From UHGV virus genome UHGV-0027971: DNA of 43,269 nucleotides; one strand, written 5' to 3'. The notes below the pieces were generated by a model. The model made no database searches, had not been told where the DNA came from, and saw only the letters and a list, made by a program, of their open reading frames with translations. Each line of letters begins with the position of its first letter. Position 1 is the first letter of the stretch. The position numbers and the translations under genes were made by a program. Below are positions 9,353 to 41,751 of this stretch, piece after piece. The stretch is from a virus.

Positions 9353-10064
9353 TATAGCTATTGATAAGTTGCCGATAACAACTCATTGCAACATCCCTGT
9401 AATGACTACAGAAATGCTTGCTGATTTGTATGACACAGAACCCAAACTGATTCGTCAAAACTATCAACGAAATGCAGATCGATTCATTGAGGGAAAACAT
9501 TGTTTCAAGCTGATAGGCGAAGAATTACGAGCATTTAAGAACGAGTCCTCTCAAAGAGGTTTGCTTAATATTGCACCAAAAGTAAGTCATCTTTTCTTAT
9601 GGACCGCTCGCGGTGCAGCACGACATGCGAAAATTCTTGAGACTGAAAAAGCGTGGGAGGTCTTCGAAAAACTGGAAGATTGCTACTTCGACAGAAAACC
9701 CGCAAATGTCAGTGGAGATGTTCGTCTCTCAGGTGGAGCTGATTTATCAAAGGCCACTCAGGTAATTGAAAAATTCATGCCCGCCATTATGGAGGCGATC
9801 AAGCTGGAAGACAAAAAAGAATACAGCGCCCCACTGAAGCCCGGCTACCGCAGCCTGATTCACTCGCCGTCGGGTGTTCTCGGCCTGACGGAGCACTCAC
9901 TGCTGATGAATCTGCTGAATCAGTTGCAGGAAGACGGGCACGACGTATCGGGCGCGGCGGCGGAACTGACCACCATGTTCTGCTACATCGTCGGTGTGAG
10001 TAAATGCCTGCGTGATATCCAGACGCACGCGGAGTACATCAACGACAAGGCAGGGTTCTTCTGA
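9345..10064 (+). CDS. antirepressor-like protein (ORF6N-type N-terminal domain + shared C-terminal module)
   Basis: Start taken at ATG 9345, 8 nt after GGAGG (track start 9330); C-terminal ~95 aa near-identical to those of 11074..12012 and 41064..41720. Confidence 0.7.
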   Translation: MRNIAIDKLPITTHCNIPVMTTEMLADLYDTEPKLIRQNYQRNADRFIEGKHCFKLIGEELRAFKNESSQRGLLNIAPKVSHLFLWTARGAARHAKILETEKAWEVFEKLEDCYFDRKPANVSGDVRLSGGADLSKATQVIEKFMPAIMEAIKLEDKKEYSAPLKPGYRSLIHSPSGVLGLTEHSLLMNLLNQLQEDGHDVSGAAAELTTMFCYIVGVSKCLRDIQTHAEYINDKAGFF

Positions 10065-10184
10065 CAGAACGGCGGCACAGGGATGTGCAAAACGGAACTA
10101 TCGTGACATGTCACAGGCCGCTTTCGCGGCCTTGTTTTTAACGAATGCCACCGCCGCCTGGGCGGGAATCCGCAGACACAAAAA

Positions 10185-10201
10185 AGCCCGCGGCGCGGGC
10201 T
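10185..10201 (-). terminator. rho-independent terminator downstream of the 10209..10844 gene
   Basis: Hairpin AGCCCGC-ggc-GCGGGCT with A-run 10177..10185 on plus (U-run on minus); sequence resembles the terminator at 2660..2692. Confidence 0.5.
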
Positions 10202-10208
10202 TAAAGAA

Positions 10209-10844
10209 CTATTTTATTGGCAGCTTATGCTTTGAAATTATGGCCAATCTGTTTTGGAAGTTTTCCGCATCACCCCACAACCAGGTTTCACCTTTCTCAA
10301 GTTCTTCCTCGTTATTCATCTCTATAAGTTCGCATGTCATCATGTCGTAACCATAGAGATGGAGGCCAAGTTCCAGTGCGTCATACATGCGAGCCTGCCA
10401 GAACGACATGCCTTCATGAGTCTGGTTGCGATCAGACACGATGATATCGTACCGTTCCAAGAGGTAGTTCATGAAGATGATGCCAGCGAAATCATGAAGC
10501 ACAGCACGATGCTTAGGCTTCTGGGTTCTCCATACCAATATCTGCGTGACAGGACGGCAGTTAAGATAGCTGTCAGGCTGGATAATGACACGATTGTAAT
10601 ACACTACCTCTTCGGTGAGGTCATTTATCAATGACAGTTCAAAGTGCGCCTGTGGAATCTCGCCTTTCTTACGATCGTCTACACGGACAACGCGGTATCC
10701 AGGAGCCAGAGAAACGCCTTTGACATCAGATGTGACATCGTTGCCGTTCACTAACTCTGAATACAGAGCGCGGTTGTCTGGAGTTTCGTTCAGATGAGCG
10801 AAAACCTCAGTTACCTTTGCCGGATTCAGCAGTTGTTGTGGCAT
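10209..10844 (-). CDS. hypothetical protein (211 aa), accessory gene
   Basis: Clean ORF with its own terminator and two upstream TTACC-N5-GGTAA-type sites (10886..10900, 10986..11000); no family recognised. Confidence 0.5.
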   Translation of the reverse strand: MPQQLLNPAKVTEVFAHLNETPDNRALYSELVNGNDVTSDVKGVSLAPGYRVVRVDDRKKGEIPQAHFELSLINDLTEEVVYYNRVIIQPDSYLNCRPVTQILVWRTQKPKHRAVLHDFAGIIFMNYLLERYDIIVSDRNQTHEGMSFWQARMYDALELGLHLYGYDMMTCELIEMNNEEELEKGETWLWGDAENFQNRLAIISKHKLPIK

Positions 10845-11073
10845 ACATCACCTCATAATATATAGATGCTTCTTTAAGCGGGATTTACCATTAGGGTAAA
10901 TGAACTATCCGAATGTTAAACGCCTTCGTACTCGTCAAATTTTCTCATGTGGGCTCCTCCTGTATCGGTGCCTAATCGCTATGGATCACCCGTGAGGTAA
11001 TAGTACGCTATTCACCCCCAGTCTGCAATCTGTACAGAATTATTTAAAGGCACATCCCTGTGCCGCCGTTCTG

Positions 11074-12012
11074 TCAGAAGAATCCTGCCTTGTCGTTGAT
11101 GTACTCCGCGTGGGTCTGGATATCACGCAGGCATTTGCTCACACCAACGATGTAGCAGAACATGGTGGTCAGCTCCGCCGCCGCGCCCGATACATCGTGC
11201 CCGTCTTCCTGCAACTGGTTCAGCAAATTCATCAGCAGTGAGTTCTCCGTCAGGCCGAGAACACCAGACGGCGAGTGAATCAGGCTGCGGTAGCCGGGCT
11301 TCAGCGGATAACCATAACATTTTGTCTGTGTTTTAATTGCCTCACGAAGCGCATCTAACATCTTGACTGCCACTTCATCATTCTCTGATGCAGATCCAGC
11401 AGGGAGATACTCCCCTTCAAGCGGAACCCGAGCAACAAGAGACAACGCTTCGGCGAATTGATCTTCATCAATTTCTTTGTACGAACAGCCAAAATGAGAT
11501 TTCAGTGACGACCACATGGTGATCATCGCCTTAGCCTGTTTTTCTTTTGGCAGAGACTGACCGCGACTCATGACGAGTTGTTTAATGGCTTCCTGCTGTT
11601 CAGTGGTGATTTTACCCGGCAACGCCTTTTTAGCTTTGCGTGGGTTAACTACATGGCCTTTAGTCCAGTAATCGTAGAGCACATCGTCACACTCTTCCTG
11701 ATACTGGATTACCTTGTCGCGGATTTCAGGGCGTACTTTGTTTGGACTGATGCTGTTCAACCAAGCTGCCAATTTTCGTAAAGCCATACAAATCATGGCT
11801 TGCACCCCACCGGCAGAAGGTATGGTGATTTCCACCATACCCTTCGAGAAGCGTTGAGAAATCTTCTTATGTTGAGATTTCCAGTCTAGCCCCATTCCCT
11901 CAACGATAGGTTTCATTGGGGTATACGGTTCACCGTTGTGATTGACAACATAAAGCTCTGCGCCGTGGAATGGCACGTTGATAGTAGATACCGCTGTTGC
12001 TATACTCGTCAT
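11074..12012 (-). CDS. ant: antirepressor (AntA-type N-terminal domain + shared C-terminal module)
   Basis: 312 aa; N-terminal region resembles AntA/P22 Ant-type domains; directly downstream of the arc-like gene as in P22 immI. Confidence 0.8.
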   Translation of the reverse strand: MTSIATAVSTINVPFHGAELYVVNHNGEPYTPMKPIVEGMGLDWKSQHKKISQRFSKGMVEITIPSAGGVQAMICMALRKLAAWLNSISPNKVRPEIRDKVIQYQEECDDVLYDYWTKGHVVNPRKAKKALPGKITTEQQEAIKQLVMSRGQSLPKEKQAKAMITMWSSLKSHFGCSYKEIDEDQFAEALSLVARVPLEGEYLPAGSASENDEVAVKMLDALREAIKTQTKCYGYPLKPGYRSLIHSPSGVLGLTENSLLMNLLNQLQEDGHDVSGAAAELTTMFCYIVGVSKCLRDIQTHAEYINDKAGFF

Positions 12013-12087
12013 GTCGTTAATTCCTATACGTAGTTTTACGATACTGAAGCCCTGACGGTCTGGCCACCGTTGGGCTTCGCTGTTTTA
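12013..12087 (+). ncRNA. candidate sar-like antisense RNA opposite the ant ribosome-binding region
   Basis: Plus-strand promoter inside the ant 5' end (-35 TTGATA 11978..11983, 17-bp spacer, -10 TATACT 12001..12006) and plus-strand terminator in the arc-ant gap (GAAGCCC..ACGGT-ctggcc-ACCGT..GGGCTTC + GCTGTTTTA, 12046..12087); predicted ~75 nt. Confidence 0.45.
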
Positions 12088-12252
12088 TGCCACGCTATTC
12101 TTCTCACCAGTGAGTCCATACACTTTCCTCAGCTGATAGATAATCTCTGTATTGAACTTTCGGCATTCTTTTTCGCCATTTCTTTCAATAGCTAACTTCA
12201 CATCGTCCGGAAAACGAACTCGTCGTTGACACATCTCTTTTGCTTTTTGCAT
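12085..12252 (-). CDS. arc: Arc-like ribbon-helix-helix repressor
   Basis: 55 aa from ATG 12252 with strong RBS AAGGAG (track start 12288 is a forced TTG); size and beta-strand region (RRVRFPDDVKLAIERNGE) fit P22 Arc. Confidence 0.7.
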   Translation of the reverse strand: MQKAKEMCQRRVRFPDDVKLAIERNGEKECRKFNTEIIYQLRKVYGLTGEKNSVA

Positions 12253-12266
12253 TTCATATCTCCTTA

Positions 12267-12281
12267 GCCCCACGGTGGGGC
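12267..12281. promoter_or_regulatory. Mnt-operator-like palindrome GCCCCACGGTGGGGC upstream of the arc-like gene
   Basis: Perfect 15-bp palindrome with CCACGGTGG core as I recall for the P22 mnt operator; sits just upstream of the arc RBS. Confidence 0.6.
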
Positions 12282-12372
12282 AAAACAATTGTCACACCGT
12301 GCGTCATTGATGTCAAGCACACGGTGAGGCATACTTCAATCATTGCAAGTAACTCAATATTTGGTGAAGAAC

Positions 12373-12804
12373 ATGAGCAGAGAAGATCCACAACTAAGGA
12401 TCAGACTTCCCGTTGAAGTAAAAGAAAAAATAGAAATTTCTGCAAAAGCCAATAAGCGATCAATGAACGCTGAAATAGTACAACGTCTTGACACCAGCTT
12501 TCTGAAAGATATTCATGAAGATGACGTAATTTCTGCTTATGAAGCAAAAATTATTGCAAACAATGCACGGCATGAAATATCAAATATTATTTTCAAAAGA
12601 ACCTTTAATGAAATTAATAAGAAAATAACACTTGGACATACAAGTTTTTATATAAACCTTAATGACCTTGAACTGGAATCACTTGCAGATAATGATTACC
12701 AGATCATCTTTGAAAAAACATTTAATAAGCTCAATGAACTAGGTTACATCATCTGTGAAAACTCATGGGATGCAGATGGTTTTGGAATTGAAATACCTGA
12801 ATAG
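12373..12804 (+). CDS. mnt: Mnt-like ribbon-helix-helix repressor with extended C-terminal region
   Basis: N-terminus MSREDPQLRIRLPVEVKEKIEISAKANKRSMNAEIVQRL matches my recollection of P22 Mnt (MARDDPHFNFRMPMEVREKLKFRAEANGRSMNSELLQIV); divergent from arc-ant; start taken at ATG 12373. Confidence 0.75.
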   Translation: MSREDPQLRIRLPVEVKEKIEISAKANKRSMNAEIVQRLDTSFLKDIHEDDVISAYEAKIIANNARHEISNIIFKRTFNEINKKITLGHTSFYINLNDLELESLADNDYQIIFEKTFNKLNELGYIICENSWDADGFGIEIPE

Positions 12805-12846
12805 GAAGAACAAAAGGCGTGTACATATTACACGTCTTTAATACAA

Positions 12847-13458
12847 TTGAAAAACGCCACATTACTGATGTATGTTACAACAAGGAGCGATATTTTGAAA
12901 ACCATATCTATATTAAAGGTTGCATTAGGCGTCGCTATTATTTTGACTCTCTCAATATTGTTTTATTTTTACCACAAAAAAAATGCTATTGCTCTTGATG
13001 GTCACGCGGCAAACTCATTTTTCTCAGAGTACATAGTGCCGCTATCAGGAAGCGGTATAACAAATAAATATACTGACTATGACATCAAATATGGAATTGA
13101 TGATGGGGAGACTATTGTATTACATGTAATCATTAAAAACCTAATGACAGTAAATAAAAATACAGACTTCAACGATAAAAATACAATACATCACAACAAC
13201 AGCAAAACATTAATTTCTTATAGTAGCAACATCTATACGGATAAATACCTAAAATACATCTCAGAAGATACAATAAAAGCAACCAGCGAAAAGTTAAAAA
13301 ACATATATTGTGCATCCGGCAGTTTTCACAAATTATCGCCGCAGGAGCGTTTATTCTACGAAGCAAGAAAACAACGTAAGTCAATAATATTACATTATTA
13401 TGCTGATTCAGGGGAGTCACTCATATTTAATATTGGGGTTTCCCCTGAATCATGCTAA
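12847..13458 (+). CDS. hypothetical membrane-anchored protein (203 aa), AT-rich accessory gene
   Basis: N-terminal hydrophobic helix (ILKVALGVAIILTLSILFYFY), N/K/Y-rich body; position next to mnt corresponds to sieA in P22-like maps (positional analogy only). Confidence 0.45.
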   Translation: MKNATLLMYVTTRSDILKTISILKVALGVAIILTLSILFYFYHKKNAIALDGHAANSFFSEYIVPLSGSGITNKYTDYDIKYGIDDGETIVLHVIIKNLMTVNKNTDFNDKNTIHHNNSKTLISYSSNIYTDKYLKYISEDTIKATSEKLKNIYCASGSFHKLSPQERLFYEARKQRKSIILHYYADSGESLIFNIGVSPESC

Positions 13459-13469
13459 AGGCGTTTAAC

Positions 13470-16400
13470 TCACCGCATCACCGGATCCACCTGGTTTATT
13501 AGTGGCGCAATCCAGAACAGGTTATTGCCTGGTATCAGAGTTCGGACATTATGCGCAATACGATCACCGGCATCACCATTCAACACTCCTGCGGTCACAT
13601 CAATGATGCTATCCGCAAGACCAAATGACGGTCCGAATAGAGATCCTACGAATCCACGACTGGCATACCTAGACTGTGTGCCAGTGCCAAATAAAGCCCC
13701 CAGCCCAACAGCACCACCAGTAGCCTTTTCAGCCATGTTGTTATATTCCATCAATGGCCCAAGAATACCGGATCTATCTATACCCTCAAGCACCAGCTTC
13801 TCTGGTGACCAGTCAACATTTTTCCCTTTCGATGCTTCTTTTAGCGCATAGACCAGTGAGCCAAGAGCAATCTGAAATGCAGTGCCATAATAAAATTGCG
13901 CAGTTCCCTCCTGTAACCCACCAAGTAGCGCACGGTTGTATGAAGCCGTTGTGAATGATTTAAACTGAAATATCGTTCGCCCCATTGGAGTACTCGCCCA
14001 TAAAGGTGTGTCACCAATACCGGGGGTGATGATAGTGTTATTAACGTCTTTCAGAACCGCTGACTGGAATACTCCGGCAACGTACTGATCGTCCCATTTA
14101 TCAAAGTTACCAATGTGCCATCCATCAATTACCTCACCATGTTTCTCGAACTCACTGCGAATACGCGCAGCCATATTGTCGTTGATACCGAGTTTTGCCA
14201 TGCGACGTGCAGAAAACGCACCGGACAAAATACCGTCTGACGTGAGCATTCCGTTCATGGATTTGTTTATGTCATTAAATCGATCCATGAGTGTCAGCTT
14301 GCCGAAGGCATCAGTAATTCGCTCCATTCCTGCTTCGACTGCTGTTGTCCTGGAAGAACTGTCAACAAGATCACCAATTGCACGAGAACGTGAATGTAGT
14401 ACAGCTTCCAATCCAATCCCCATCTTCAACATATCTTCTTTGCTGGCCTTAAATGCCGGTGATTGGGATATCTGAGAAGCATAGCCTTTCATGGTGTTAC
14501 GGAAACCATTAACCATAACCCCTCTGGCCAGATCTGGAATAGCTGATACTGTCATTCCACCGAGTTTGGTCGTGAAGTTCACATCCCGCAGAAAAGCGCC
14601 AGCACGAACAAAAAACGAAGACGGATCATCAGGCATCCCATATGTACCAACAAGACGATCGCGTAATGCTGTTATGTCTCTGAGATCATTTGCTCTTGAT
14701 TTTGAAAGTCTGGACTGTTCTTTCCGTAATTCCTTTTCGTACTTTCGCATTAATGAATCGAGTTTACCCTGAGGAACAACTTCACCATTGCTCTCATAAC
14801 GTGCTTTCAGATTTGCCACACTTTCGTCATATTTCGCCTTTATTTTTTCAGGCACTTCCCGTAACAGACTGTCATATTCGTCCTCAATTAATTGCAGACG
14901 CTCAGTCATAGTTCGTTTGCCAAATGTTCTCGTCAACTCAATTTCTGCTGCCGCTTCACGGATATGACGTTGCAGCACGTAATTCACATCACTTTCAAGA
15001 TAATCCCTGATAAGACTATCAGGAACATTTAATGTTCTTTCTTTCGTACTACCTGCGGCTTTTACAGAAAATACGCTGACAAAATCCTGTGGAACCTTAG
15101 CACCAGTAATTTTATTAATTACGATATCCGCTGCAATTTCAGCATCCTCAGGATCCAGTGTTTTATTTCCTCTCGACCACCAGTCAACCAAAATACGTCG
15201 AAATTTATCGCGTTCACTGATTATTTTTCCAACTTTATATATGCGTGGGAAATAGCTTGCCTGGCCTAATGCTTTCAGTTCTTCATCTGGCGGCAATAAA
15301 CCAAGCTTTTGCATTTCAACTTTCACCCGATTTAATACAGTTCGCATCGCCTGCGCCGTTTCCTGAACAACAGGATTAGCATGCACATCACCGCTTCGCA
15401 TAGCATTCCCAACCTGCTGACGAAATGAATCAAAACTCATGTCACCACCATCAGCTTTATACTTTGCGTATGCCTGTTTATTTCCGACAACAACAGCAGC
15501 TTCTTCACGCTGCCATCCACGTGTACGGGTTTCTACAGCTACCGGTGTTTCAATCCCCCTTTCATTTCCTTTAAGGGTGAAATTATTTTCGGCTAACTCC
15601 AGCGTTGTTTTTCGCACCGTCTTGGACGGAGACTCCATTAACCTTGTCAAAGGAGTAAGATAGCTCCCTGCTTTCCATGCAGCCTTTCCAACCCACCCAC
15701 CGGAAACAGGGGTTAAATCATCCAGAGTCGCTGTATCAATTTTCATAGCACCAACACTACCACCATCGGAAAGCGAAGCGGCAGCCCTGTCAGTCACTGA
15801 TGTAATGCTCATATTATCAAGAGCATCAGCAACCTCACGTGTGGCTGCAGCCCGGACGGATGGCGAAAGCGCAACACCAGCACTGGCAAACACGCCGCTC
15901 ATCATCGCACCCGCTGCAACGTGAGCGGCACTTTCACCCCATGAGCGTGTTATTTGCTGATTATTCAGTACAACCTCGCTTAATGCTGTACCGGCAGCAC
16001 CAATCGCAATCTGTGAGCCAATACGCGCCAGTGCCCCTCCTTGAGCACCGGGAATAAACATTGACGCAACAGTAACCGGATCCATTCCCGCAGCAATACT
16101 GGCAAGGGTTCCAACTACGCCAGCATCAGACAATAAACGTCTGTCTTCATTTTCATCATCTATCTGCTGCTTAATCCACGCCGTTTCCTCTGGCGATCGG
16201 GAATCTGCAAATTTCGCCCCCCAGTATTCATAACCGTGCAACTCATTTTTATCAGCATATGGGTTATAACCCTCGACCGGTTCAAACTGTCTGGCTGGGC
16301 GGAAAAAACCAGACAGAATATTGTTCTGTCGCATTGCAGCCCCCCATACGGAAGGCTCAGGTGGCAATGGCTCAGGATTAGCCCCTTCCGGAAGGGCAAC

Positions 16401-16484
16401 ATCAAACCCAGTTTGTTCCGGCAAAACATTACCTGACGGGATCAGTCCGTTATTAAGATCTTCAGCTTGTGCATAAACTGGCAT
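13470..16484 (-). CDS. internal virion/ejection protein (T7 gp16-position, 1004 aa)
   Basis: Very large ORF ending the virion operon after the gp14/gp15-like genes. Confidence 0.7.
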   Translation of the reverse strand: MPVYAQAEDLNNGLIPSGNVLPEQTGFDVALPEGANPEPLPPEPSVWGAAMRQNNILSGFFRPARQFEPVEGYNPYADKNELHGYEYWGAKFADSRSPEETAWIKQQIDDENEDRRLLSDAGVVGTLASIAAGMDPVTVASMFIPGAQGGALARIGSQIAIGAAGTALSEVVLNNQQITRSWGESAAHVAAGAMMSGVFASAGVALSPSVRAAATREVADALDNMSITSVTDRAAASLSDGGSVGAMKIDTATLDDLTPVSGGWVGKAAWKAGSYLTPLTRLMESPSKTVRKTTLELAENNFTLKGNERGIETPVAVETRTRGWQREEAAVVVGNKQAYAKYKADGGDMSFDSFRQQVGNAMRSGDVHANPVVQETAQAMRTVLNRVKVEMQKLGLLPPDEELKALGQASYFPRIYKVGKIISERDKFRRILVDWWSRGNKTLDPEDAEIAADIVINKITGAKVPQDFVSVFSVKAAGSTKERTLNVPDSLIRDYLESDVNYVLQRHIREAAAEIELTRTFGKRTMTERLQLIEDEYDSLLREVPEKIKAKYDESVANLKARYESNGEVVPQGKLDSLMRKYEKELRKEQSRLSKSRANDLRDITALRDRLVGTYGMPDDPSSFFVRAGAFLRDVNFTTKLGGMTVSAIPDLARGVMVNGFRNTMKGYASQISQSPAFKASKEDMLKMGIGLEAVLHSRSRAIGDLVDSSSRTTAVEAGMERITDAFGKLTLMDRFNDINKSMNGMLTSDGILSGAFSARRMAKLGINDNMAARIRSEFEKHGEVIDGWHIGNFDKWDDQYVAGVFQSAVLKDVNNTIITPGIGDTPLWASTPMGRTIFQFKSFTTASYNRALLGGLQEGTAQFYYGTAFQIALGSLVYALKEASKGKNVDWSPEKLVLEGIDRSGILGPLMEYNNMAEKATGGAVGLGALFGTGTQSRYASRGFVGSLFGPSFGLADSIIDVTAGVLNGDAGDRIAHNVRTLIPGNNLFWIAPLINQVDPVMR

Positions 16485-19201: not shown

Positions 19202-19767
19202 CAGTAACCTCCTATTTTGAATCGGGAGTCAGAATTCATAAAACCTGAGTTAGATAACATTGGCGTGTTTCCTTGCTTACTAATCGGATTGATACTTCCG
19301 CCACCCAACTTATATGCACCGTATGCTTTTAGTGGTGCCGTTAACAAAGTGCTGGTCATCGATGATTTAGCAGCCGACTGAGCAGCAGCCCCCTGTGCCT
19401 GAGCATTCATTCCCTGAACCTGATACCCATATGCCTCACGCTGAGCATTATTCACTGTCGTTAACGCATCAAGAGTGCCGAACTGAGCATTATCCGCAAA
19501 AACGTCAAGAGCTGTTCCGCTACTTAATTCCGCACCGGTAGCCCCCATAGTGGCCGCCGCAGTGCCTGAGCGTTGACGCATTTCACGACGACGCTGATCC
19601 GCTTCAATATTCCCACGATTGATTGAATCCTGTGCCTGAGCTTCAGCAATTTCAGCATTCCGATCAGCTATGGCTGACTGGTATTTTGCCTGCTTGCTCT
19701 GGCTGTACATTGACGCGGCTGTGGATGCCACTGTGACGGCAACCAAAGCGATGGCTGGGTTACACAT
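19201..19767 (-). CDS. internal virion protein (T7 gp14-position)
   Basis: 188 aa, A/Q-rich, N-terminal hydrophobic segment; call by synteny. Confidence 0.55.
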   Translation of the reverse strand: MCNPAIALVAVTVASTAASMYSQSKQAKYQSAIADRNAEIAEAQAQDSINRGNIEADQRRREMRQRSGTAAATMGATGAELSSGTALDVFADNAQFGTLDALTTVNNAQREAYGYQVQGMNAQAQGAAAQSAAKSSMTSTLLTAPLKAYGAYKLGGGSINPISKQGNTPMLSNSGFMNSDSRFKIGGY

Positions 19768-20231
19768 TATTTTCTCTCCATGTGAAATCTGTGGAAATTA
19801 AGACCAAGAGCACCATAAGGCGCGGCTTCTTCAAGCCTGAATCCAAGCCAGTGCAGCCATGCTTTGGCAACATGGTTTCGCTCGTCGACGTAGTTTTCCA
19901 GGCGCGGATAAACTGCCAGCATCTGCTGCAATACAGGGCGGCAGTGGCGAAGAAATGTCTTCTGATATTTTTCAATACGGCTGGTTCCTACCAGCCAGGG
20001 CGTACCATTGCCACCGATCATTGACGCCGGAGATACACCAAACATGGTTACCAGTTCTCCGTTCGCAAATCCTGACCAGGCCATAGTCGCAGTACGCAGA
20101 CCAACACGCAGCGCATCTTCGGTAGTCATCAGTGATACCGCATACAGTTCGTCAATATCAGCCTGACGAACATCCGGCAAAATCATCTGAAGATGCTCTT
20201 CGGTTGCGGGAATAATTTGAACATCGATCAT
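19767..20231 (-). CDS. virion protein (T7 gp13-position)
   Basis: 154 aa ORF between the tail tubular B-like and gp14-like genes; synteny only. Confidence 0.5.
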   Translation of the reverse strand: MIDVQIIPATEEHLQMILPDVRQADIDELYAVSLMTTEDALRVGLRTATMAWSGFANGELVTMFGVSPASMIGGNGTPWLVGTSRIEKYQKTFLRHCRPVLQQMLAVYPRLENYVDERNHVAKAWLHWLGFRLEEAAPYGALGLNFHRFHMERK

Positions 20232-28187: not shown

Positions 28188-28201
28188 TTCAATGACTCCG
28201 G

Positions 28202-28835: not shown

Positions 28836-28912
28836 GTGGCATTAGCTCAGTTGGACAGAGCAACCGCCTTCTAAGCGGTTGGTCGCAGGTTCGAATCCTG
28901 CATGCCACGCCA
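28836..28912 (+). tRNA. tRNA-Arg (anticodon UCU)
   Basis: Cloverleaf by eye: acceptor GTGGCAT/ATGCCAC, D-arm TAGCTCAGTTGGACAGAGCA, anticodon stem ACCGC/GCGGT with loop CTTCTAA, T-arm GCAGGTTCGAATCCTGC, discriminator G and CCA. Confidence 0.85.
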
Positions 28913-33791: not shown

Positions 33792-33908
33792 GATTTACCC
33801 CTTAGGTAATTAAAAACCACATAAGACATGAAATCAATAGATGCTAGAACATTTTATTACCCATCAGGTAATCATGTGGACGTAAAAAAATGCGCTATCG
33901 CGCTGGTA

Positions 33909-34691: not shown

Positions 34692-35511
34692 CCCACACCT
34701 CATCTATCCAGTCAGTGTTATTCCAGTCAAGCTCATCGCTTTTCCCGGCATTTTTTGATTTTCCCCTGATATGATTTACGTGCCTGGCGAATTTTTGTTC
34801 CCACTGAACCTGCGTGAACACTTTGCCCTCAGCCATCCAGTAATCCCGGAATGCAGCAAGTTCAGCAGGTGTAAATTCCGGTTCCGGCAGGGCCGTTCCC
34901 CACAGCGCAGCACGCCGCCGAAAATCTGGCGACGGTAGCCAGCCATCTGTCATCGGAAATTTCCCGATGGGTTCACTCAGGCCATCCAGAAATTCAGGTT
35001 CTGCCACCTGCAACGGCGTACTGTTCGCTTCACTGGTCGGAGCACCCTCGCGCACGTGCGCTATGTGTGGGGTTTTATATATATCTTCCTCTTCCTCTTC
35101 CTCTGGTAACTCCTTTTGTAACGCTGTTGGCGTTACTTTTTGCGTTACTCGTTTTCGATGCTCTGCCACTCTTCTATTCGTAAGTGCACGTTTTTTCGAT
35201 GATTCTCCATTGTGTCGCTCAAAGTTTGGAAGAATTAGTTTGCCGTCATGATAAGCAAGCCATCCGACGCTAATGAGGGCGTCAGCAAATCCTGTAATAA
35301 AAGCGAGTCTATCAAGTACTCCTTTTGTAACGCTGCCAGCGTTACCGTCTATTGTTTGCTGGTCAGCCCATGCCCATATACGAACCAGCTTTCCAAGAAC
35401 AGCATCTGGATCAATACCCAGAATTTCTGCTATCTGAAAAATTTCAGGTTTATCAGGAGTGATAACTTCAACCTTAATCCAGCTGCTTGCCATAGGTTTC
35501 CCCTCTTGCAC
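34666..35511 (-). CDS. replication initiator (lambda O-like position)
   Basis: 281 aa, directly upstream of and overlapping the P-like gene; acidic linker EEEEEED; C-terminal DWNNTDWIDEVWDEI reminiscent of the lambda O C-terminus. Confidence 0.6.
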   Translation of the reverse strand: MQEGKPMASSWIKVEVITPDKPEIFQIAEILGIDPDAVLGKLVRIWAWADQQTIDGNAGSVTKGVLDRLAFITGFADALISVGWLAYHDGKLILPNFERHNGESSKKRALTNRRVAEHRKRVTQKVTPTALQKELPEEEEEEDIYKTPHIAHVREGAPTSEANSTPLQVAEPEFLDGLSEPIGKFPMTDGWLPSPDFRRRAALWGTALPEPEFTPAELAAFRDYWMAEGKVFTQVQWEQKFARHVNHIRGKSKNAGKSDELDWNNTDWIDEVWDEINSRTS

Positions 35512-35686
35512 TCTTTAGTGCACAAGCAAATTCATTACGATGGCGGTTGGCGCTATTCATTGCACATTCAACACATGTTCCGTTCAGAACATACCTTTCA
35601 GAGAGATGGCCGTGACGGCACCGCTTTCCTGTGAAATAGCGATTTAACCCGGCTTTTGCGGCCTCCATTCTGGTTACTATCTTCAA
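35474..35686 (-). CDS. hypothetical small Cys/His-containing protein between cro-like and O-like genes
   Basis: 70-aa ORF from TTG preceded by SD AAGGGG; motif CRHGH..CVEC; overlaps the O-like start. Confidence 0.35.
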   Translation of the reverse strand: MKIVTRMEAAKAGLNRYFTGKRCRHGHLSERYVLNGTCVECAMNSANRHRNEFACALKSARGETYGKQLD

Positions 35687-35787
35687 TTTTTCCGCCCCTT
35701 TTTGTTATTGATATTGGCTATTTTGCACAATTGGAAAATTTGATCAACCAGATTTGGTTTTTTATTACCTTTGAGGTACGAATAGAT

Positions 35788-35812
35788 ATGAAAAGACCGC
35801 CGGATGGCGGTC
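35788..35812 (-). terminator. tR1-like terminator immediately after the cro-like gene
   Basis: GACCGCC-ggat-GGCGGTC hairpin followed on the minus strand by TTTTCAT; a TTACCTTTGAGGTAC site follows at 35765..35779. Confidence 0.55.
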
Positions 35813-35834
35813 TACAGAGGGTTGTGGCTGGATA

Positions 35835-36065
35835 TCATGAGTAGAAGAAGTATGCCAGTTCTGCTTTTGAGCGCAGCCATTGTCTTGTTTTACAGGCTTT
35901 AAAAAGCCCATTCATCAATACCTTACCTGGCATTTTGCGCTTACCTGTTAAGTGAGTCTGGATATAGTGACTCGTCGTTCCGGCTTCCTGTGCGAAGGCT
36001 TCACGCTCATCCGGAGTAAGTGCAAGCCAGTGCTTTTTGAAATCGAAATGTCCGTTATCGCTCAT
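35835..36065 (-). CDS. Cro-like small regulator (first gene of the minus-strand early operon)
   Basis: 76 aa, divergent from the repressor gene and followed by the replication genes; assignment by position and size. Confidence 0.5.
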   Translation of the reverse strand: MSDNGHFDFKKHWLALTPDEREAFAQEAGTTSHYIQTHLTGKRKMPGKVLMNGLFKACKTRQWLRSKAELAYFFYS

Positions 36066-36101
36066 AGCTATTGCCTGATATTTATTTCAGATAATAAATA
36101 T

Positions 36102-36164
36102 TCACCCATAAGGTAACAAAAATCAAGGATAGTTACCTATGAGGTGCATTTACCTGATGGGTAA
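36102..36164. promoter_or_regulatory. operator cluster of the immunity switch (three TTACC-N5-GGTAA-type sites)
   Basis: TCACCCATAAGGTAA (36102..36116), TTACCTATGAGGTGC (36133..36147), TTACCTGATGGGTAA (36150..36164) in the 154-bp gap between divergent regulator genes. Confidence 0.65.
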
Positions 36165-36219
36165 TATTGCTTTAAATTGAATCATCTACTGATTCATATA
36201 TGAGGCGATTTTCCAGAAA

Positions 36220-36804
36220 ATGAAAAGTATCCAGGACGTCCGCAGGCAAAATCTCAACGACTTGATCGACCGTGAATTCAATGGTGTTCAGACGCGGATG
36301 GCAGAAAAACTTGGAACTCAGGCAAATCTGGTAAACCGCTGGGCTCTTGGCAAGAAGGTTATCGGCGACCAGGTTGCGCGAAAAATTGAAGCTGCCGCCA
36401 ATAAACCCCGTAACTGGCTTGATATCGATCGCTCGCTTTCTCAGGAAGGTTTTCAGCCTGTCGGCCCAAGCGACATTGGCCAGCTGGCGGCTCACAACCT
36501 GGAACGCTGGATGAGCGAAAGCCGCGACCTTTCAACACAGGGAAAACTTCACCGCGCATCCGGCGTAGCCCAGGTGACAATCAGCCGCCTGTTAAACAAT
36601 GAGGTCAGCGTTTCCATTTCCACCCTGGAGAATGTTGCATCCGCATTCGGGCGTCACGGCTATGAATTACTGATTCACCCGCACGACCCTGCGACCATCA
36701 ACTATGATCGCTCGCGCTACGCATTGTTACCCGAAACCGAGAAAGCAAAGATCGAAAGTTACATTGAATTTGTCATCAACCAGAACGAAAAAAGCAAACA
36801 ATAA
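36220..36804 (+). CDS. putative prophage repressor with two HTH domains and no recognisable autocleavage domain
   Basis: 194 aa; HTH-like segments VQTRMAEKLGTQANLVNRWALGKK and ASGVAQVTISRLLNNE; no LexA/CI-like peptidase motif seen; occupies the cI position. Confidence 0.6.
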   Translation: MKSIQDVRRQNLNDLIDREFNGVQTRMAEKLGTQANLVNRWALGKKVIGDQVARKIEAAANKPRNWLDIDRSLSQEGFQPVGPSDIGQLAAHNLERWMSESRDLSTQGKLHRASGVAQVTISRLLNNEVSVSISTLENVASAFGRHGYELLIHPHDPATINYDRSRYALLPETEKAKIESYIEFVINQNEKSKQ

Positions 36805-36825
36805 AACTATAGTTTTCAGCAAGTA

Positions 36826-36848
36826 AGCCGCCTCATGGCGGCTTTTTT
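36826..36848 (+). terminator. rho-independent terminator after the repressor gene
   Basis: AGCCGCC-tcat-GGCGGCT followed by TTTTTT. Confidence 0.75.
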
Positions 36849-36861
36849 ATTGCCAGATAGA

Positions 36862-36938
36862 TTACCTTACGGGTAATTTTTTTAACTCATATCTATTGAC
36901 ACCAAACCAAATAAGCATAATTATTACCTCAACGGTAA
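36862..36938 (+). promoter_or_regulatory. pL-like promoter flanked by two operator sites
   Basis: -35 TTGACA (36895..36900), AT-rich -10 region near 36917..36923; TTACCTTACGGGTAA (36862..36876) upstream and TTACCTCAACGGTAA (36924..36938) just downstream. Confidence 0.55.
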
Positions 36939-36957
36939 CAAACCGAGGTAACAAGTT

Positions 36958-37110
36958 ATGCAGTGGAAAATCATCAACGGTTGGTACTGCGTTACTGCAT
37001 GCGGATTCATGAGCTGGAAGTTCCGCACCTTACAGGAAGGCATTAAGTGGGCTTTCGTCAGCAAAGAAGCTCGCGATGTGGCCAACGATAACGAGATATG
37101 GGAGGGCTGA
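36958..37110 (+). CDS. hypothetical small protein (50 aa), first gene of the plus-strand early operon
   Basis: ATG preceded by SD GAGG at 9-nt spacing; below the ORF-track size cut-off; W/C-rich. Confidence 0.45.
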   Translation: MQWKIINGWYCVTACGFMSWKFRTLQEGIKWAFVSKEARDVANDNEIWEG

Positions 37111-37112
37111 TA

Positions 37113-37412
37113 ATGAACGTTAATCAGCAGAAAAATCTTCAAAAAATCATGCTGGCATTCGACAAGGACTACCGTCTGTCAGAACAGCTATATGACCGAC
37201 AAGTTGAACTGATTGAGAGTATCCGGCTTCATCAACTGGCATCAACTTTCGACGTTGTAACAGTTAAAGGCGTTCGCCAGGAAGTACTGGAGGCCGCTAA
37301 AGACAGCCCTGAGTTCGAAGAACTGATGGATTCCTACCGGCGCGAGGCAATGGCAATTATCGCCCGCTGGGATCTGGCTGATCAGCTTGATGGGCAGAGG
37401 GACGCGGCATGA
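37113..37412 (+). CDS. hypothetical protein upstream of exonuclease
   Basis: ATG 37113 with strong SD GGAGGG; 99 aa; no family recognised. Confidence 0.45.
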   Translation: MNVNQQKNLQKIMLAFDKDYRLSEQLYDRQVELIESIRLHQLASTFDVVTVKGVRQEVLEAAKDSPEFEELMDSYRREAMAIIARWDLADQLDGQRDAA

Positions 37413-38230
37413 ATCCGGGAATTTATTTCGATATCAGCAACGAGGACTACCACGCCGGTGACGGCGTGAGTAAGTCGCAACTGGACATGGTTGCCAAGAA
37501 TCCGGCGCTTCTTAAATGGGTTCAGGCAGCACCAGAAGACGAAGAGAAAAAGTCTGCACTGGATATGGGAACCGCATTGCACTGTCTGCTTCTGGAGCCT
37601 GGAGAATTCAACAAACGCTTCATTGTTTCACCGAAATTCGATCGTCGGACGAAACAAGGTAAAGCTGACGAAGAAGCATTTCTTCGTGATGTAGCGGATA
37701 TGGGGATTACGGTACTTGATGCCGAGCAGTGGCGGAAACTGGAGCTGATGCGTGATAGCGCAATGGCTCACCCGGCGGCACGCTGGATGCTGGAAGCACC
37801 TGGTTACTGCGAAGCATCAATGTACTGGAACGATGAAGAGACGGGTGAGTTGTGCCGAATTCGTCCAGACAAATGGCTGAACGAGCACAACGTGATCGTC
37901 GACGTGAAAAAGGTTGCAGATATGGACCGTTTTGCACGTCACATCGAGGAATTCCGCTACCACGTGCAGGACGCAATGTACCGCGAAGGCGCAATGAGGG
38001 TTACTGGTCAGCCGCATGGTTTTTTCTTTCTTGCCGTGAGCGAAAGCATTGATTGTGGTCGGTATCCGGTACGCGTGTTCGGGCTGGATGCGCCGGATGT
38101 CGATGCCGGGCACGCTCTGTTCCGCCGGGATCTGAATACCTATCACGAATGCCGCATCAGCGATGAATGGGGCGGCGTGGAAATTATTAAACGCCCTGAG
38201 TGGGCACGCAAACAGGATATGTACGTATGA
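37409..38230 (+). CDS. phage exonuclease (YqaJ/lambda-Exo-like PD-(D/E)xK recombination nuclease)
   Basis: 273 aa; N-terminal GIYFDISNEDYHAGDGVSKSQL and acidic/K motifs; paired with the downstream RecT-like gene. Confidence 0.75.
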   Translation: MNPGIYFDISNEDYHAGDGVSKSQLDMVAKNPALLKWVQAAPEDEEKKSALDMGTALHCLLLEPGEFNKRFIVSPKFDRRTKQGKADEEAFLRDVADMGITVLDAEQWRKLELMRDSAMAHPAARWMLEAPGYCEASMYWNDEETGELCRIRPDKWLNEHNVIVDVKKVADMDRFARHIEEFRYHVQDAMYREGAMRVTGQPHGFFFLAVSESIDCGRYPVRVFGLDAPDVDAGHALFRRDLNTYHECRISDEWGGVEIIKRPEWARKQDMYV

Positions 38231-39144
38231 GCAACGAAATTGCAATCACCAATGATGTGTTGGCTATTCGGGGAATCGATGAAGTTACATGGAGCGCTCT
38301 GAAAAACAGTATTTACCCTGGGGCAAAAGATGAATCGGTAATGATGGCAGTCGATTACTGCCGGGCGCGTCAACTCGATCCTCTTCTTAAGCCGGTACAC
38401 CTGGTACCAATGAGTGTTAAAGACTCGAAGAGTGGAAAGAATGAATGGCGCGACGTGGTCATGCCTGGCATTGGACTTTATCGCATTCAGGCCTACCGTT
38501 CCGGCGATTACGCAGGCGCTAATGAACCTGAGTTCGGTCCAGATGTAACACAAACGCTTTCAGGCGTGGAGGTTACCTTCCCTCAGTGGTGTAAGTACAC
38601 CGTCAGCAAGCGAATGGCAAGCGGGGAAATCGTAGAGTTTAGCGCCAAAGAATACTGGATTGAGAACTATGCAACTGGGGGGCGTGACACATCGGCACCA
38701 AATGCCATGTGGAAAAAGCGCCCTTATGCGCAGTTGGCAAAATGCGCAGAGGCACAGGCATTACGTAAAGCATGGCCGGAGATTGGTCAACAAGCCACAG
38801 CTGAGGAAATGGAAGGTAAATATATCGACTCACCTGACATTATTGAACGTGACGTAACTCCAAGAAGCCAGGCAAAGCACGGCACAGCATCCAGCATGAA
38901 CAGTCTGATCAACGCTAAAACAGTGAAAAAGCCTGATGAGCAAACGCGTAAAGCGGATAGCCGTGATCCAGAAGAAATGCTGATGGCCTTTACCAGCGCA
39001 GCGATGAATTACAGCACTGTCTCCGAACTGGATAAGGCTTACAAATACATTGCACAAAAACTTTCAGATGATGACGAACTGCTGGCAAAAGCCACCGACG
39101 TTTACAGCGTTCGTCGGGAAGAATTAAACGAAACATCTATGTAA
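38227..39144 (+). CDS. RecT/Bet-family single-strand annealing protein
   Basis: Motif KRPYAQLAKCAEAQALRKAWPE; start ATG 38227 overlaps the exonuclease stop (ATGA). Confidence 0.8.
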   Translation: MSNEIAITNDVLAIRGIDEVTWSALKNSIYPGAKDESVMMAVDYCRARQLDPLLKPVHLVPMSVKDSKSGKNEWRDVVMPGIGLYRIQAYRSGDYAGANEPEFGPDVTQTLSGVEVTFPQWCKYTVSKRMASGEIVEFSAKEYWIENYATGGRDTSAPNAMWKKRPYAQLAKCAEAQALRKAWPEIGQQATAEEMEGKYIDSPDIIERDVTPRSQAKHGTASSMNSLINAKTVKKPDEQTRKADSRDPEEMLMAFTSAAMNYSTVSELDKAYKYIAQKLSDDDELLAKATDVYSVRREELNETSM

Positions 39145-39193
39145 CCACCACCGCGGCGCCACACGCGCCGCACTGCAACCAAGAGAGGTATTT

Positions 39194-39442
39194 ATGAAAG
39201 GTGCATTAGGTAAGAAGGAACTCCTGGCGGTGGTGCCACTGTCATGGAGCACTATCGACCGTATGGAGCGCGCAGGGGAATTTCCTAAACGCTGGTATAT
39301 CACCGATAAACGCTGCGCATGGAACCGTGATGAAGTTGAGCGTTGGCTTGATGAACGTCAGGCAGCAAGCCCGGCAGAGTTCCAGGGTAAAAAGCCTCCT
39401 GTTCAGCAACGTGTATATCGTCCTGTGAGCAACGCTGCATGA
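39194..39442 (+). CDS. AlpA-family small HTH regulator/excisionase-like protein
   Basis: 82 aa; LAVVPLSWSTIDRMERAGEFPKRWYITDKRCAWNRDEVERWLDE resembles AlpA/Xis-type HTH proteins. Confidence 0.6.
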   Translation: MKGALGKKELLAVVPLSWSTIDRMERAGEFPKRWYITDKRCAWNRDEVERWLDERQAASPAEFQGKKPPVQQRVYRPVSNAA

Positions 39443-39551
39443 GTGCGCTGCTAAGGCACTGGAGCAAATGGTCAGGATGGTACTTATTCCTGGCCTCTGT
39501 TTCAGCATGGCTTTATCTGCTGGCATTAATTTTCAGAGAGGGTTGGATTAA

Positions 39552-39851
39552 GTGAGAAAGTTAAGCCGACTTGAAAAATACCACATGAATAAGGTTTCAA
39601 TGCGCAGTCCGTCAAAGATTGTCGCCGTTACTCCTGCGGCGATAGAGATCGAAAAACGCGCGATTGAAAGAGAGAAAAAAGGGCAGTTCCGCATTGCCGC
39701 TCACCTTTGGCTTCAGTGTATGGATGTTGCTTCTGGTGATGTTGAACGTGCAAGGATCGCGGTTCGCAGGGACCAATGTATCACAAAAGGTAACGGCCTT
39801 CGCCGTGGCGACTATAGCGGCATAGGATGTTGTGGGGTGGTTTATGACTAA
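39552..39851 (+). CDS. hypothetical protein (possibly PerC-like activator; weak)
   Basis: 99-aa ORF (GTG start) upstream of and overlapping the methyltransferase start. Confidence 0.4.
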   Translation: MRKLSRLEKYHMNKVSMRSPSKIVAVTPAAIEIEKRAIEREKKGQFRIAAHLWLQCMDVASGDVERARIAVRRDQCITKGNGLRRGDYSGIGCCGVVYD

Positions 39852-40494
39852 GAAATACACACTAATCTATGCAGATCCACCCTGGGTATACCGGGACAAA
39901 GCCGCAGATGGTAATCGCGGTGCCGGTTTTAAATATCCAGTTATGAGTGTGCTGGATATCTGCCGCCTTCCTGTGTGGGATTTGACCGCTGAAAACTGTC
40001 TGTTGGCCATGTGGTGGGTGCCAACACAACCACTCGAAGCACTAAAAGTTGTTGAAGCCTGGGGATTTCGTCTGATGACGATGAAGGGCTTCACGTGGAT
40101 AAAATGTGGTAGTCGACAACCAGATAAACTGGTTATGGGTATGGGGCACATGACTCGCGCCAATAGTGAAGATTGCCTGTTTGCGGTAAAGGGAAAACTA
40201 CCTACGCGCATTAATGCAGGGATCGTTCAGTCATTTACCGCACCGCGGCTTGAGCATTCAAGAAAACCAGATATCGTTCGTGAAAAACTTGTGCAATTGT
40301 TAGGCGATGTTTCTCGCATTGAACTGTTCGCCAGACAGACGTCTCATGGCTTCGATGTTTGGGGTAATCAGTGCGAAGACCCGGCAGTGCAACTACACCC
40401 TGGATACGCGTTGGATATTGCCGGATTAACAAATGCATTCAGCAATGCTCCGCTGTCACCAACAGACAACCAGGGGCGGGAGCGTGCAGCATGA
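39844..40494 (+). CDS. MT-A70-family N6-adenine DNA methyltransferase (orphan)
   Basis: Motif IYADPPW near the N-terminus; no adjacent restriction endonuclease gene; start ATG 39844 overlaps the previous stop. Confidence 0.8.
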   Translation: MTKKYTLIYADPPWVYRDKAADGNRGAGFKYPVMSVLDICRLPVWDLTAENCLLAMWWVPTQPLEALKVVEAWGFRLMTMKGFTWIKCGSRQPDKLVMGMGHMTRANSEDCLFAVKGKLPTRINAGIVQSFTAPRLEHSRKPDIVREKLVQLLGDVSRIELFARQTSHGFDVWGNQCEDPAVQLHPGYALDIAGLTNAFSNAPLSPTDNQGRERAA

Positions 40495-40739
40495 AGCAGA
40501 TTATGGTTGCACACAACGGCGTCAGGTTTGAAGTCGTCATGGTTTTGACTAAGTACCGCAATGATGAGGTATTGCAGAGAAAAGAAACTGTAACTTACCG
40601 TTATAAACACCGAAGTTCAGCTGTTAGAAGATTACGGAAGATTACGGAAGAGCTAAAAAATGATCCTCATCGTGTTATTGAGGTAAAAGGCAACCCATAT
40701 AAAATCACAACTTCAGTGGAGCTAAGACATATGCAATAA
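40491..40739 (+). CDS. hypothetical small protein
   Basis: 82 aa from ATG overlapping the methyltransferase stop; contains a 10-bp tandem duplication at 40631..40650. Confidence 0.45.
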   Translation: MKQIMVAHNGVRFEVVMVLTKYRNDEVLQRKETVTYRYKHRSSAVRRLRKITEELKNDPHRVIEVKGNPYKITTSVELRHMQ

Positions 40740-41011
40740 AATCACGCCTGACGAATCGCGATTATCTCGCTATTGGTATTGCAGAGATTGCTGGACTCAG
40801 TGGCGCATGATTTGACAATGCCGCCAGAGCTATCGCATACTGACCGCACTAGAACTTCAAAGCGGTCACCCGCACCCGATAGCTTTGCGGCTTTTTTATG
40901 CCTGCAATTTGGCATAGTCACATCCGTACAAAGGTCGGGTGGAGAGGCGTAATACAATACCCAAAAGGGGAATATGCCCGGAGCGTCTTTGAAGGCTCTA
41001 GTTGACACCCG

Positions 41012-41034
41012 ATCACCAGCTACTAACTGGTGAT
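41012..41034. promoter_or_regulatory. palindrome ATCACCAG-N7-CTGGTGAT next to -35-like TTGACA upstream of the third antirepressor gene
   Basis: 8-bp inverted half-sites; differs from both the LexA box and the TTACC-N5-GGTAA motif. Confidence 0.4.
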
Positions 41035-41063
41035 TGCTAACTAAAACTTCAAAGGAGGTCATC

Positions 41064-41720
41064 ATGACCAGTCAACTCATCCCCGTATTCAACGGCACTA
41101 TATCTAACGAAACAGCCCTACTTTGCAATGCCCGCGATCTGCACGCTTTTTTAGGTGTTAAAAAGGTGTTTGCAGCATGGATTACAAATCGAATTTCAGA
41201 ATACGAATTCATTGAAAATCAAGACTATATTTTGCTTTCCAATTTGGGAAAGCAAACATCTGGTAGAGGCGGCCACAACCGCAAAGAGTACCACCTCACC
41301 CTCGATACAGCCAAAGAACTAGCAATGGTCGAGCGTAACGAAAAAGGTCGTCAGGTACGACGCTACTTCATTGAATGCGAGAAACGTTTAAGACAACAAG
41401 AAACAAAAGTGGAGAAGGTCTTGTCAGGCTTCATGCCCGCCATTATGGAGGCGATCAAGCTGGAAGACAAAAAAGAATACAGCGCCCCACTGAAGCCCGG
41501 CTACCGCAGTCTGATTCATTCTCCGTCTGGTGTTCTCGGCCTGACGGAGAACTCACTGCTGATGAATCTGCTGAACCAGTTACAGGAAGACGGGCACGAC
41601 GTATCGGGCGCGGCGGCGGAGCTGACCACCATGTTCTGCTACATCGTCGGTGTGAGCAAATGCCTGCGTGATATCCAGACGCACGCGGAGTACATCAACG
41701 ACAAGGCAGGGTTCTTCTGA
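41064..41720 (+). CDS. antirepressor-like protein (Bro-N/AntA-like N-terminal domain + shared C-terminal module)
   Basis: Start ATG 41064 after strong SD AAGGAGG (track start 41034); C-terminal ~95 aa near-identical to those of 9345..10064 and 11074..12012. Confidence 0.75.
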
Positions 41721-41751
41721 CGGCGGCGGCACAGGGATGTGCCGGGCAAAA

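Follow-up and report, generated by a model that had tools for sequence, protein, structure and literature searches.

Antirepression of the repressor Rep by the protein Ant has reportedly been described for the Salmonella phage SPC32H (Kim & Ryu 2013; Kim et al. 2016; PDB accession numbers 5D50 and 5D4Z). As two other papers present it, SPC32H Ant is a small helical tetramer (PMC9638917) that contacts the tetramerization domain of Rep (PMC9986798) and makes the DNA-binding tetramer of Rep fall apart into dimers (PMC9638917, PMC9986798), and it is known from that phage only as a single, stand-alone, LexA-controlled protein of 86 amino acids (aa). The DNA analyzed here, UHGV virus genome UHGV-0027971 (43,269 nucleotides [nt], the whole of which we call the window), holds an ~40.5-kb Escherichia coli prophage, phiV10/epsilon15-like (Uetakevirus), at guaA. 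Three of its genes, termed A, B, and C, end in one near-identical C-terminal segment, and this segment (the module) and a fourth gene, D, appear to encode a complete SPC32H-type Ant domain four times within the same prophage.

Iyer, Koonin, and Aravind are said to have recognized, in 2002, a “Bro network” of domain-swapping proteins. The network has since been described for phage and satellite proteins with recombining N- and C-terminal segments, and it lists ORF6N, P22_AR_N, AntA, Bro-N, and Phage_pRha as members, its domains being reported as DNA interactive and often regulatory (PMC10111431). As for the control of antirepressors, sar RNA prevents translation of ant in phage P22, the synthesis of Ant in P1 and P7 is blocked by c4 RNA (PMC12197685), and in Gifsy-1, IsrK turns on a leader open reading frame (ORF) and hence the downstream antirepressor-like gene (PMC4825925). 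Overexpression of ORF4, named an “anti-repressor,” of phage vB_EcoP_ZX5 (ZX5) brought lysogens down from 1e9 to 1e6 and rep transcripts down by 75%; its authors treated the Bro-N domain only, with no tie of the C terminus to SPC32H Ant (PMC9782041).

Across the whole window, a search for repeats of at least 40 nt returned one direct family and two inverted pairs, and no others. They are formed by the following three copies.

9774..10089, plus strand: repeat copy A (A/C-type linker 9774-9830, module core 9831-10064, hairpin 10074-10089)
11049..11307, minus strand: repeat copy B (hairpin 11049-11064, module core 11074-11307)
41430..41743, plus strand: repeat copy C (linker, module core 41487-41720, hairpin 41728-41743)

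Copies A and C make up the direct pair (9774-10065 and 41430-41721; 292 nt, 97% identity, starts 31,656 nt apart), and copy B is inverted relative to both A (9831-10088 and 11050-11307; 258 nt, 96% identity, 961 nt between the arms) and C (11073-11307 and 41487-41721; 235 nt, 96% identity). A preliminary description of this DNA, made from the letters alone, had reported three segments near-identical at the nucleotide level, with direct repeats about 31 kb and an inverted pair about 1 kb apart; the repeat search (96 to 97% identity) and a three-way alignment bear this out, the similarity being one of nucleotides, although the segment given for copy B (11041-11300) has to be moved to a shared arm at 11050-11307. 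The edges of the repeat are sharp: A and C are identical from TTCATGCCCGCC (9774/41430), B enters the shared sequence at CCGCTGAAGCCCGGC (about 9831), 57 nt past the A/C start, and all three part ways directly after GGCACAGGGATGTGC(C), the hairpin. This hairpin had been noticed as common to the three copies, and it occurs exactly three times in the window against 0.05 expected; it begins 10 nt past the stop codon, not about 30 bp as first stated. A role as intrinsic terminator is not supported, as the hairpin has no T-run and is not among the results of the terminator scan, and a terminator of its own follows for gene A 27 nt farther downstream.

Within the 234-nt core, A and B differ at 11 sites (10 synonymous), A and C at 9 (8 synonymous), and B and C at 10 (all synonymous), which adds up to 28 synonymous changes out of 30 pairwise differences; the sole amino acid change, H in A against N in B and C, is the one variable position of a shared peptide that had been quoted correctly. 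All three ORFs are intact. The core has a GC content of 57 to 58.5% (76 to 78% at third codon positions), compared with 42 to 46% (38 to 47%) in the N-terminal parts and a window average of 47.8%, so the impression that the N-terminal parts are AT-richer was right, and the view that they are unrelated is supported. They belong to three different Pfam families, with no pairwise similarity beyond the shared A/C linker in BLASTP and blastn and no Pfam cross-matches even with relaxed thresholds, and we reject a hidden relatedness, of which these searches found nothing; PHROG cross-matches hint only at superfamily-level kinship. The family assignments themselves needed revision: ORF6N for A and AntA for C stand, but B, thought to be AntA-like, is P22_AR_N (E = 2.5e-45), and the Bro-N component proposed for C has no match in Pfam.

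The identity of the module follows from comparison with the SPC32H proteins. The genes concerned and the resident repressor are listed here.

7441..7698, plus strand: gene D, a stand-alone Ant of 85 aa (phmmer match to PDB 5D50 chain E over residues 3 to 85, E = 5.6e-47; PHROG 450)
9345..10064, plus strand: gene A, ORF6N N-domain, linker, and Ant module, 239 aa (Pfam ORF6N, E = 1e-18)
11074..12012, minus strand: gene B, P22_AR_N, middle region, and Ant module, 312 aa (Pfam P22_AR_N, E value as above)
41064..41720, plus strand: gene C, AntA N-domain, linker, and Ant module, 218 aa (Pfam AntA, E = 4.2e-26)
36220..36804, plus strand: Rep, the prophage repressor (phmmer against 5D50 chain A, “Repressor,” E = 3.5e-42)

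The A/B/C module aligns with 5D50 chain E over residues 3 to 79, essentially the full length of Ant (E = 7.7e-15), and shares its fold; its structural model is a simple helical bundle element. All four proteins match PHROG 450, none of them matches NCBIfam or PADLOC, and the C-terminal segment is without any Pfam or NCBIfam model. Gene D is 88% identical to SPC32H ant (tblastn) and is its ortholog, occupying the corresponding place in the genome beside the tailspike. At 43% protein identity to the A/B/C module, it is also a diverged fourth copy, overlooked in the preliminary description, which had the other three. The LexA-repressed promoter and the small stand-alone form of SPC32H Ant are found in D only, A, B, and C being fusions of 239 to 312 aa. 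The window Rep is identical to that of HEMP4 (100%) and nearly so to those of phiV10, ZX5, and TL-2011b (99.5%), but only 42.7% identical to SPC32H Rep, and D, at 88%, is thus far more conserved than Rep across genera. Window and SPC32H differ in that the window holds a second Ant allele as the C-terminal domain of three larger proteins, which have other controls and no LexA boxes.

The module also tracks the repressor through the known phages. Its DNA is present in 17 of 50,697 phage records, all Uetakevirus-like phages of E. coli, Enterobacter, or Klebsiella, and each of the 17 has a Rep homolog, as do 37 records overall. D-type Ant is found in 35 records, essentially the same set as the Rep-encoding ones; Salmonella phages, including SPC32H, have D only, and the ABC-type module occurs only beside the phiV10-type Rep and its Enterobacter and Klebsiella relatives. 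Of 5,426 complete E. coli genomes, 537 have Rep and 463 have the module core, no genome having more than three core copies, which places the window at the upper extreme without making it unique. In proteins, an exhaustive phmmer search of 1.84 billion representative sequences recovered only 37 relatives of the module, a small family in which it either stands alone or is the C-terminal part of a fusion to AntA, Bro-N, ORF6N, or Phage_pRha (a word-indexed protein search, returning mostly fragments and short gene calls, was of little use for fusion partners, and the exhaustive search was used instead). With P22_AR_N counted from gene B, the partners amount to at least five families. A 95-aa “stand-alone” protein (P0010) of two relatives (L007 and L008) was discarded as a truncated remnant of a Bro-N fusion and no true stand-alone gene. 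In phiV10 (L005), the sole module copy (19551..19768) has a 16-nt deletion that causes a frameshift, and the annotation divides it into a Bro-N protein of 194 aa and an ORF of 29 aa; with its only copy frameshifted, the type phage of the group is probably without a functional fusion.

The assayed protein ZX5 ORF4 consists of Bro-N plus a module core that is protein-identical to the cores of B and C, lies in the same slot as gene A behind isrK and C4, and acts beside a Rep 99.5% identical to that of the window, and its overexpression shifts the phage away from lysogeny; it differs from gene A in having Bro-N in place of ORF6N, and ZX5 has one such gene where the window has three. Antirepressor-like activity has thus been published for a protein ending in this very module. 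A, B, and C are probably composite antirepressors that act through a C-terminal Ant domain on the resident Rep, the presumed common target of all four Ant domains; the A/B/C module would bind the window Rep, all three genes would be expressed and active, and the N-domains may make a contribution of their own.

Gene B lies in surroundings that resemble immI of P22, within an immI-like accessory region (~7.3 to 13.5 kb) located, as in P22, between the injection-protein genes and the tailspike.

12014..12081, plus strand: antisense RNA of the sar family, facing the arc-ant junction (Rfam RF00262, 45.2 bits, gathering score 43, marginal)
12085..12252, minus strand: Arc-like small ribbon-helix-helix gene, upstream of B (weak PHROG Arc-like matches, E about 1e-4)
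12343..12804, plus strand: Mnt-like gene with an Arc-family ribbon-helix-helix N-domain, divergent from arc and B (Pfam Arc, E = 1.2e-14)

Residues 1 to 200 of the B protein are 96% identical to Ant of the P22-like phage CUS-3, which continues as P22_AR_C (E = 5e-29) where B has the module; no P22_AR_C is found in gene B at E values up to 10. What sets B apart from the P22 immI and CUS-3 arrangement is thus the replacement of P22_AR_C by an SPC32H-type Ant module, in a prophage whose resident repressor is Rep and not of the C2/CI type. The N-terminal part of B recurs in Shiga toxin (Stx) phages and P22-like phages at 87 to 94% DNA identity. A sar-family RNA stands at the same position in TL-2011b and CUS-3, alongside B-type genes, and the Arc-like gene, near which there is a promoter-like site (12316-12288, minus strand), is annotated in TL-2011b as “Arc-like repressor.” The “boundary sequence” that flanks ant in CUS-3 (bsq1, bsq2) is unrelated to the hairpin. 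After the Mnt-like gene comes an ORF of 203 aa and ~31% GC (12847..13458, plus strand) with a weak TIR-like (ThsB) PADLOC match (E = 0.0058), which may be a moron or defense gene.

Gene D shares LexA boxes with its SPC32H ortholog; a window scan for CTGT-N8-ACAG (4 matches against 0.42 expected) finds two sites before it.

7331..7346, plus strand: distal LexA-box-like site, CTGTGAATTCGAACAG, upstream of D
7404..7419, plus strand: proximal LexA box, CTGTATAAATATACAG, 21 nt upstream of the D start codon (ATG)

The box upstream of D is found at the same place in six relatives (L001 to L006). The same window scan gave no site upstream of A, B, or C, and LexA control of these three genes was rejected because no boxes are there. 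Between D and the gene A leader lies an ORF of 242 aa (7721..8449, minus strand) with a Cys-rich C terminus and a subthreshold Stc1 zinc finger match (E = 5e-4), which is missing in L001 and L002, where the spacers are shorter.

Gene A is preceded by a leader of a different kind and followed by a gene that separates it from B.

8614..8690, plus strand: isrK-family small RNA (sRNA), gene A operon leader (Rfam RF01394, 68.1 bits, gathering score 50)
8715..8800, plus strand: C4 antisense (immunity) RNA, gene A operon leader (Rfam RF01695, 76.7 bits, gathering score 45)
8846..9352, plus strand: leader ORF, 168 aa (ORF list and match to PHROG 18738), its stop overlapping the start of A
10115..10132, plus strand: intrinsic terminator of gene A (scan; AGGCCGCTTTCGCGGCCT then TGTTTTT), outside the shared repeat
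10209..10844, minus strand: cargo gene, 211 aa (PHROG 1349), between the inverted repeats and in either orientation in relatives

The longest ORF of gene A starts at 9330, and the start at 9345 is favored by the ribosome-binding site, by RefSeq homologs, and by the annotation of L001. The stop-start overlap with the leader ORF (ATGCGTAA at 9345-9352) suggests, as far as sequence goes, that the two are translationally coupled. In its isrK and/or C4 leader and a leader ORF predicted to be coupled to an antirepressor-like gene, slot A resembles P1/P7 immI (c4-icd-ant) and the isrK-orf45-anrP operon of Gifsy-1; it departs from them in the size of the leader ORF (168 aa, unrelated to that of icd or orf45) and in a downstream protein that ends in the Ant module. 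The isrK and C4 elements are kept before the slot-A genes of L001 to L004, L006, and L011, be the fusion ORF6N, Bro-N, or AntA. The last of these (L011, E. coli UPEC-774U, 1843..4773) has two convergent module genes, one AntA-type and one Bro-N-type, each with its own isrK and C4 leader, adjoined by a truncated P22_AR_N pseudogene; leaders, N-domains, and modules therefore reassort independently. The cargo gene, flanked by the convergent genes A and B, has no match in Pfam, NCBIfam, or PADLOC, and its slot is variable, with YafO toxin, DUF4760, or DUF2335 genes there in other E. coli prophages.

Gene C, convergent with int and with a ribosome-binding site (AGGAGG) 5 nt before its ATG, has the third type of leader.

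40933..41022, plus strand: sRNA-Xcc1-family element upstream of C (Rfam RF02221, 62.9 bits, gathering score 53)

An element of this family also precedes the slot-C gene of HEMP4. Its 3' end in the window is overlapped by a perfect 8-bp inverted repeat (41012..41034, ATCACCAG-N7-CTGGTGAT) that occurs once in the window, 30 nt before the start of C, and that could be either an RNA hairpin or an operator. Farther upstream, a 79-aa ORF contains an 11-nt tandem duplication (40627..40650, GAAGATTACGG GAAGATTACGG-like, reading agattacggaagattacggaag). Slot C has a deletion variant in one relative (L009, E. coli GCA_013059185.1), which equals the window minus 40498..41433 and has, at 4001..4294, a stand-alone 97-aa module of the ABC allele whose start overlaps the stop of an MT-A70 methylase gene adjacent to int.

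These parts can be assembled into one scheme. Lysogeny would be held by the SPC32H-type repressor Rep, and D would be the canonical stand-alone Ant, freed when LexA is cleaved in an SOS response. A, B, and C would present the second Ant allele as the C terminus of ORF6N, P22_AR_N, and AntA N-domains of the Bro network, each gene being under another classical antirepressor control: A under isrK/C4 and a coupled leader ORF, B under Mnt/Arc/sar, and C, which is distal in the early-left operon, behind its leader of the sRNA-Xcc1 family. Several regulatory inputs would then converge on one repressor via one portable, Rep-specific effector domain. Since module and hairpin are ~95 to 99% identical in DNA across the phage population, they could serve as homology patches, and recombination there would give new combinations of N-domains, leaders, and the cargo that lies between A and B, and would also invert this cargo.

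Less probably, the fusions could be conditional or bifunctional antirepressors in which the Ant module inactivates Rep and the interchangeable N-domains either gate this activity according to different signals or bind a second target, making the prophage a cross-talk hub, a possibility that we advance tentatively. Were it so, the second target of the P22-Ant-type N-terminal part of B might, for example, be the repressor of a P22-like or lambdoid prophage in the same host; A, B, and C could form mixed tetramers via the module and so integrate their inputs; and modular recombination would have wired SOS, two antisense-RNA immunity circuits, and the sRNA-Xcc1 leader to one repressor as four inputs independent of each other.

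It is unlikely that the module is merely a tetramerization handle in the fusions and that the Bro-network N-domains are the effectors, as DNA-binding regulators or binders of other repressors. The tetrameric state of SPC32H Ant (PMC9638917), the reported DNA interactions of Bro-network domains (PMC10111431), and the plain helical bundle predicted for the module would all agree with such a role, but the module spans the whole minimal Ant, whose sole known activity is Rep binding, and it is restricted to Rep-encoding phages, whereas its N-domain partners are widespread. Moreover, the B-type N-domain carries P22_AR_C in a phage with a different repressor type. A generic oligomerization handle would have no need to track repressor type, and because the module does so, this explanation fits poorly; we retain the module as the probable Rep-directed part of each protein.

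How the copies came to be so similar bears on whether each of them has a function. With three copies inside one 40-kb prophage, one could suppose recent duplication, in-genome gene conversion (concerted evolution), or decaying redundant copies without per-copy function; the A and B copies of L001, 99.1% identical to each other, make homogenization possible, and the phiV10 copy has indeed lost its frame. The window copies, however, are only 95.3 to 96.2% identical to one another, while copy C is 99.1% identical to the copies of L001 and HEMP4. Being closer to these than to A and B, it marks the copies as population alleles and not in-genome duplicates, and recent duplication or conversion within the genome was rejected on these identities. 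In addition, all three ORFs are intact, nearly all differences among them are synonymous, and each slot retains its own conserved control element in relatives. The module protein is nearly invariant in 10 intact copies from 5 genomes, and, because divergence between copies exceeds some divergence between genomes, the slots seem to draw on a population allele pool under strong purifying selection. We consider copies without individual functions very improbable.

Rearrangement at the repeats is visible in natural genomes. In hundreds of E. coli genomes, the edge of the module is precisely where matches to the window start, and the N-domains and cargo genes flanking it vary; breakpoints there and five N-domain families on record support the early suggestion that N-domains are shuffled like cassettes onto a common effector module. 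The accompanying suggestion of recombination between the copies holds for the inversion, since the segment between A and B is found in both orientations in relatives, but not for the 31.6-kb deletion, whose A x C junction is absent from all 5,426 complete genomes of E. coli. L001 has A and B in place, both inter-repeat flanks swapped, and a 30%-identical cargo homolog on the other strand; L002 shares its A gene with the window (98.8% identity), and the cargo allele behind it is also that of the window (96%) but points the other way. That the inverted pair is a programmed invertible switch, flipping the cargo to control expression in the manner of Hin, Gin, Cin, or shufflons, is suggested by the two cargo orientations between the same flanking genes and by a palindromic hairpin at both segment edges, yet it is highly improbable, given that there is no invertase or other site-specific recombinase beside the segment (none within 7.2 to 13.5 kb, the window recombinases being the integrases at 1243..2433 and 41752..43002 only), that the cargo has its own terminator and its flanks move along with it, so that flipping alters neither cargo expression signals nor the A and B proteins, and that arms of 258 nt and 96% identity suit general recombination by host RecA or the phage exonuclease/RecT pair (37409..39144; annotated in relatives, Pfam RecT). 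With no invertase nearby, the rearrangements look like general homologous recombination and no programmed switch.

The prophage that carries these genes is bounded as follows.

2739..2755, no strand: attL core AATCATTCCCACTCAAT, the left prophage end, a 17-nt direct repeat that recurs at 43193
43193..43209, no strand: attR core, the right prophage end
41752..43002, minus strand: prophage integrase, a P4-type tyrosine recombinase (Pfam Arm-DNA-bind_3, Phage_int_M, and Phage_integrase)

The 17-nt repeat is the reverse complement of attgagtgggaatgatt, the attP core of phiV10, epsilon15, and ZX5, which integrate at the guaA 3' end (PMC9782041). A second P4-type integrase (1243..2433, minus strand; plus 490..1119), 53% identical to the first, adjoins attL on its left, and another integrative element therefore appears to lie in tandem at the same guaA-proximal site. 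The tailspike (4945..7245, minus strand, 766 aa) has a GDSL/SGNH esterase domain (E = 1.6e-11), a match that suggests a deacetylase-type receptor-destroying activity and not a glycosidase. Amid the head and packaging genes is a phage-encoded tRNA-Arg (anticodon TCT; 28836..28912, plus strand), of which TL-2011b and HEMP4 have one too.

Much of this rests on known components. Domain shuffling in these proteins, the LexA-controlled Ant, and the immI controls are already known, and a protein with the same module has already been assayed; since all of the N-domains belong to the described Bro network (PMC10111431), with the module joined to five of its N-domain families and the N-terminal part of B also joined to P22_AR_C, shuffling itself is not new. 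What appears to be new is the tie of the shared C terminus to the SPC32H Ant fold and its fourfold, differently controlled use in one prophage; none of the searchable papers mentioning SPC32H appears, judged by title or abstract, to make that link. Through 5D50, a specific partner and a mechanism can be named for the module, an unusual situation among Bro-network segments.

Bro-network “antirepressors” are very common in prophage annotations, and the part that touches the repressor is usually unknown; here, a C-terminal segment can be tied to a solved antirepressor-repressor complex. PHROG 450, listed as “unknown function,” and the unmodeled C termini of hundreds of RefSeq proteins named BRO-N, ORF6N, AntA, or phage antirepressor can be annotated as SPC32H-type Ant domains. 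Gene B and CUS-3 Ant provide a natural swap, the same N-domain with a different C-domain where the repressor type differs, which makes a role of the C-terminal domain in repressor specificity, and the share of the N-domains, directly testable. For the biology of these phages, the finding is relevant to the induction of a prophage group present in about 10% of complete E. coli genomes: one small phage unites the LexA/Ant, P1-type C4, and P22-type Mnt/Arc/sar schemes on what would be a single effector domain, a clear case of phages recombining known parts to decide when to wake.

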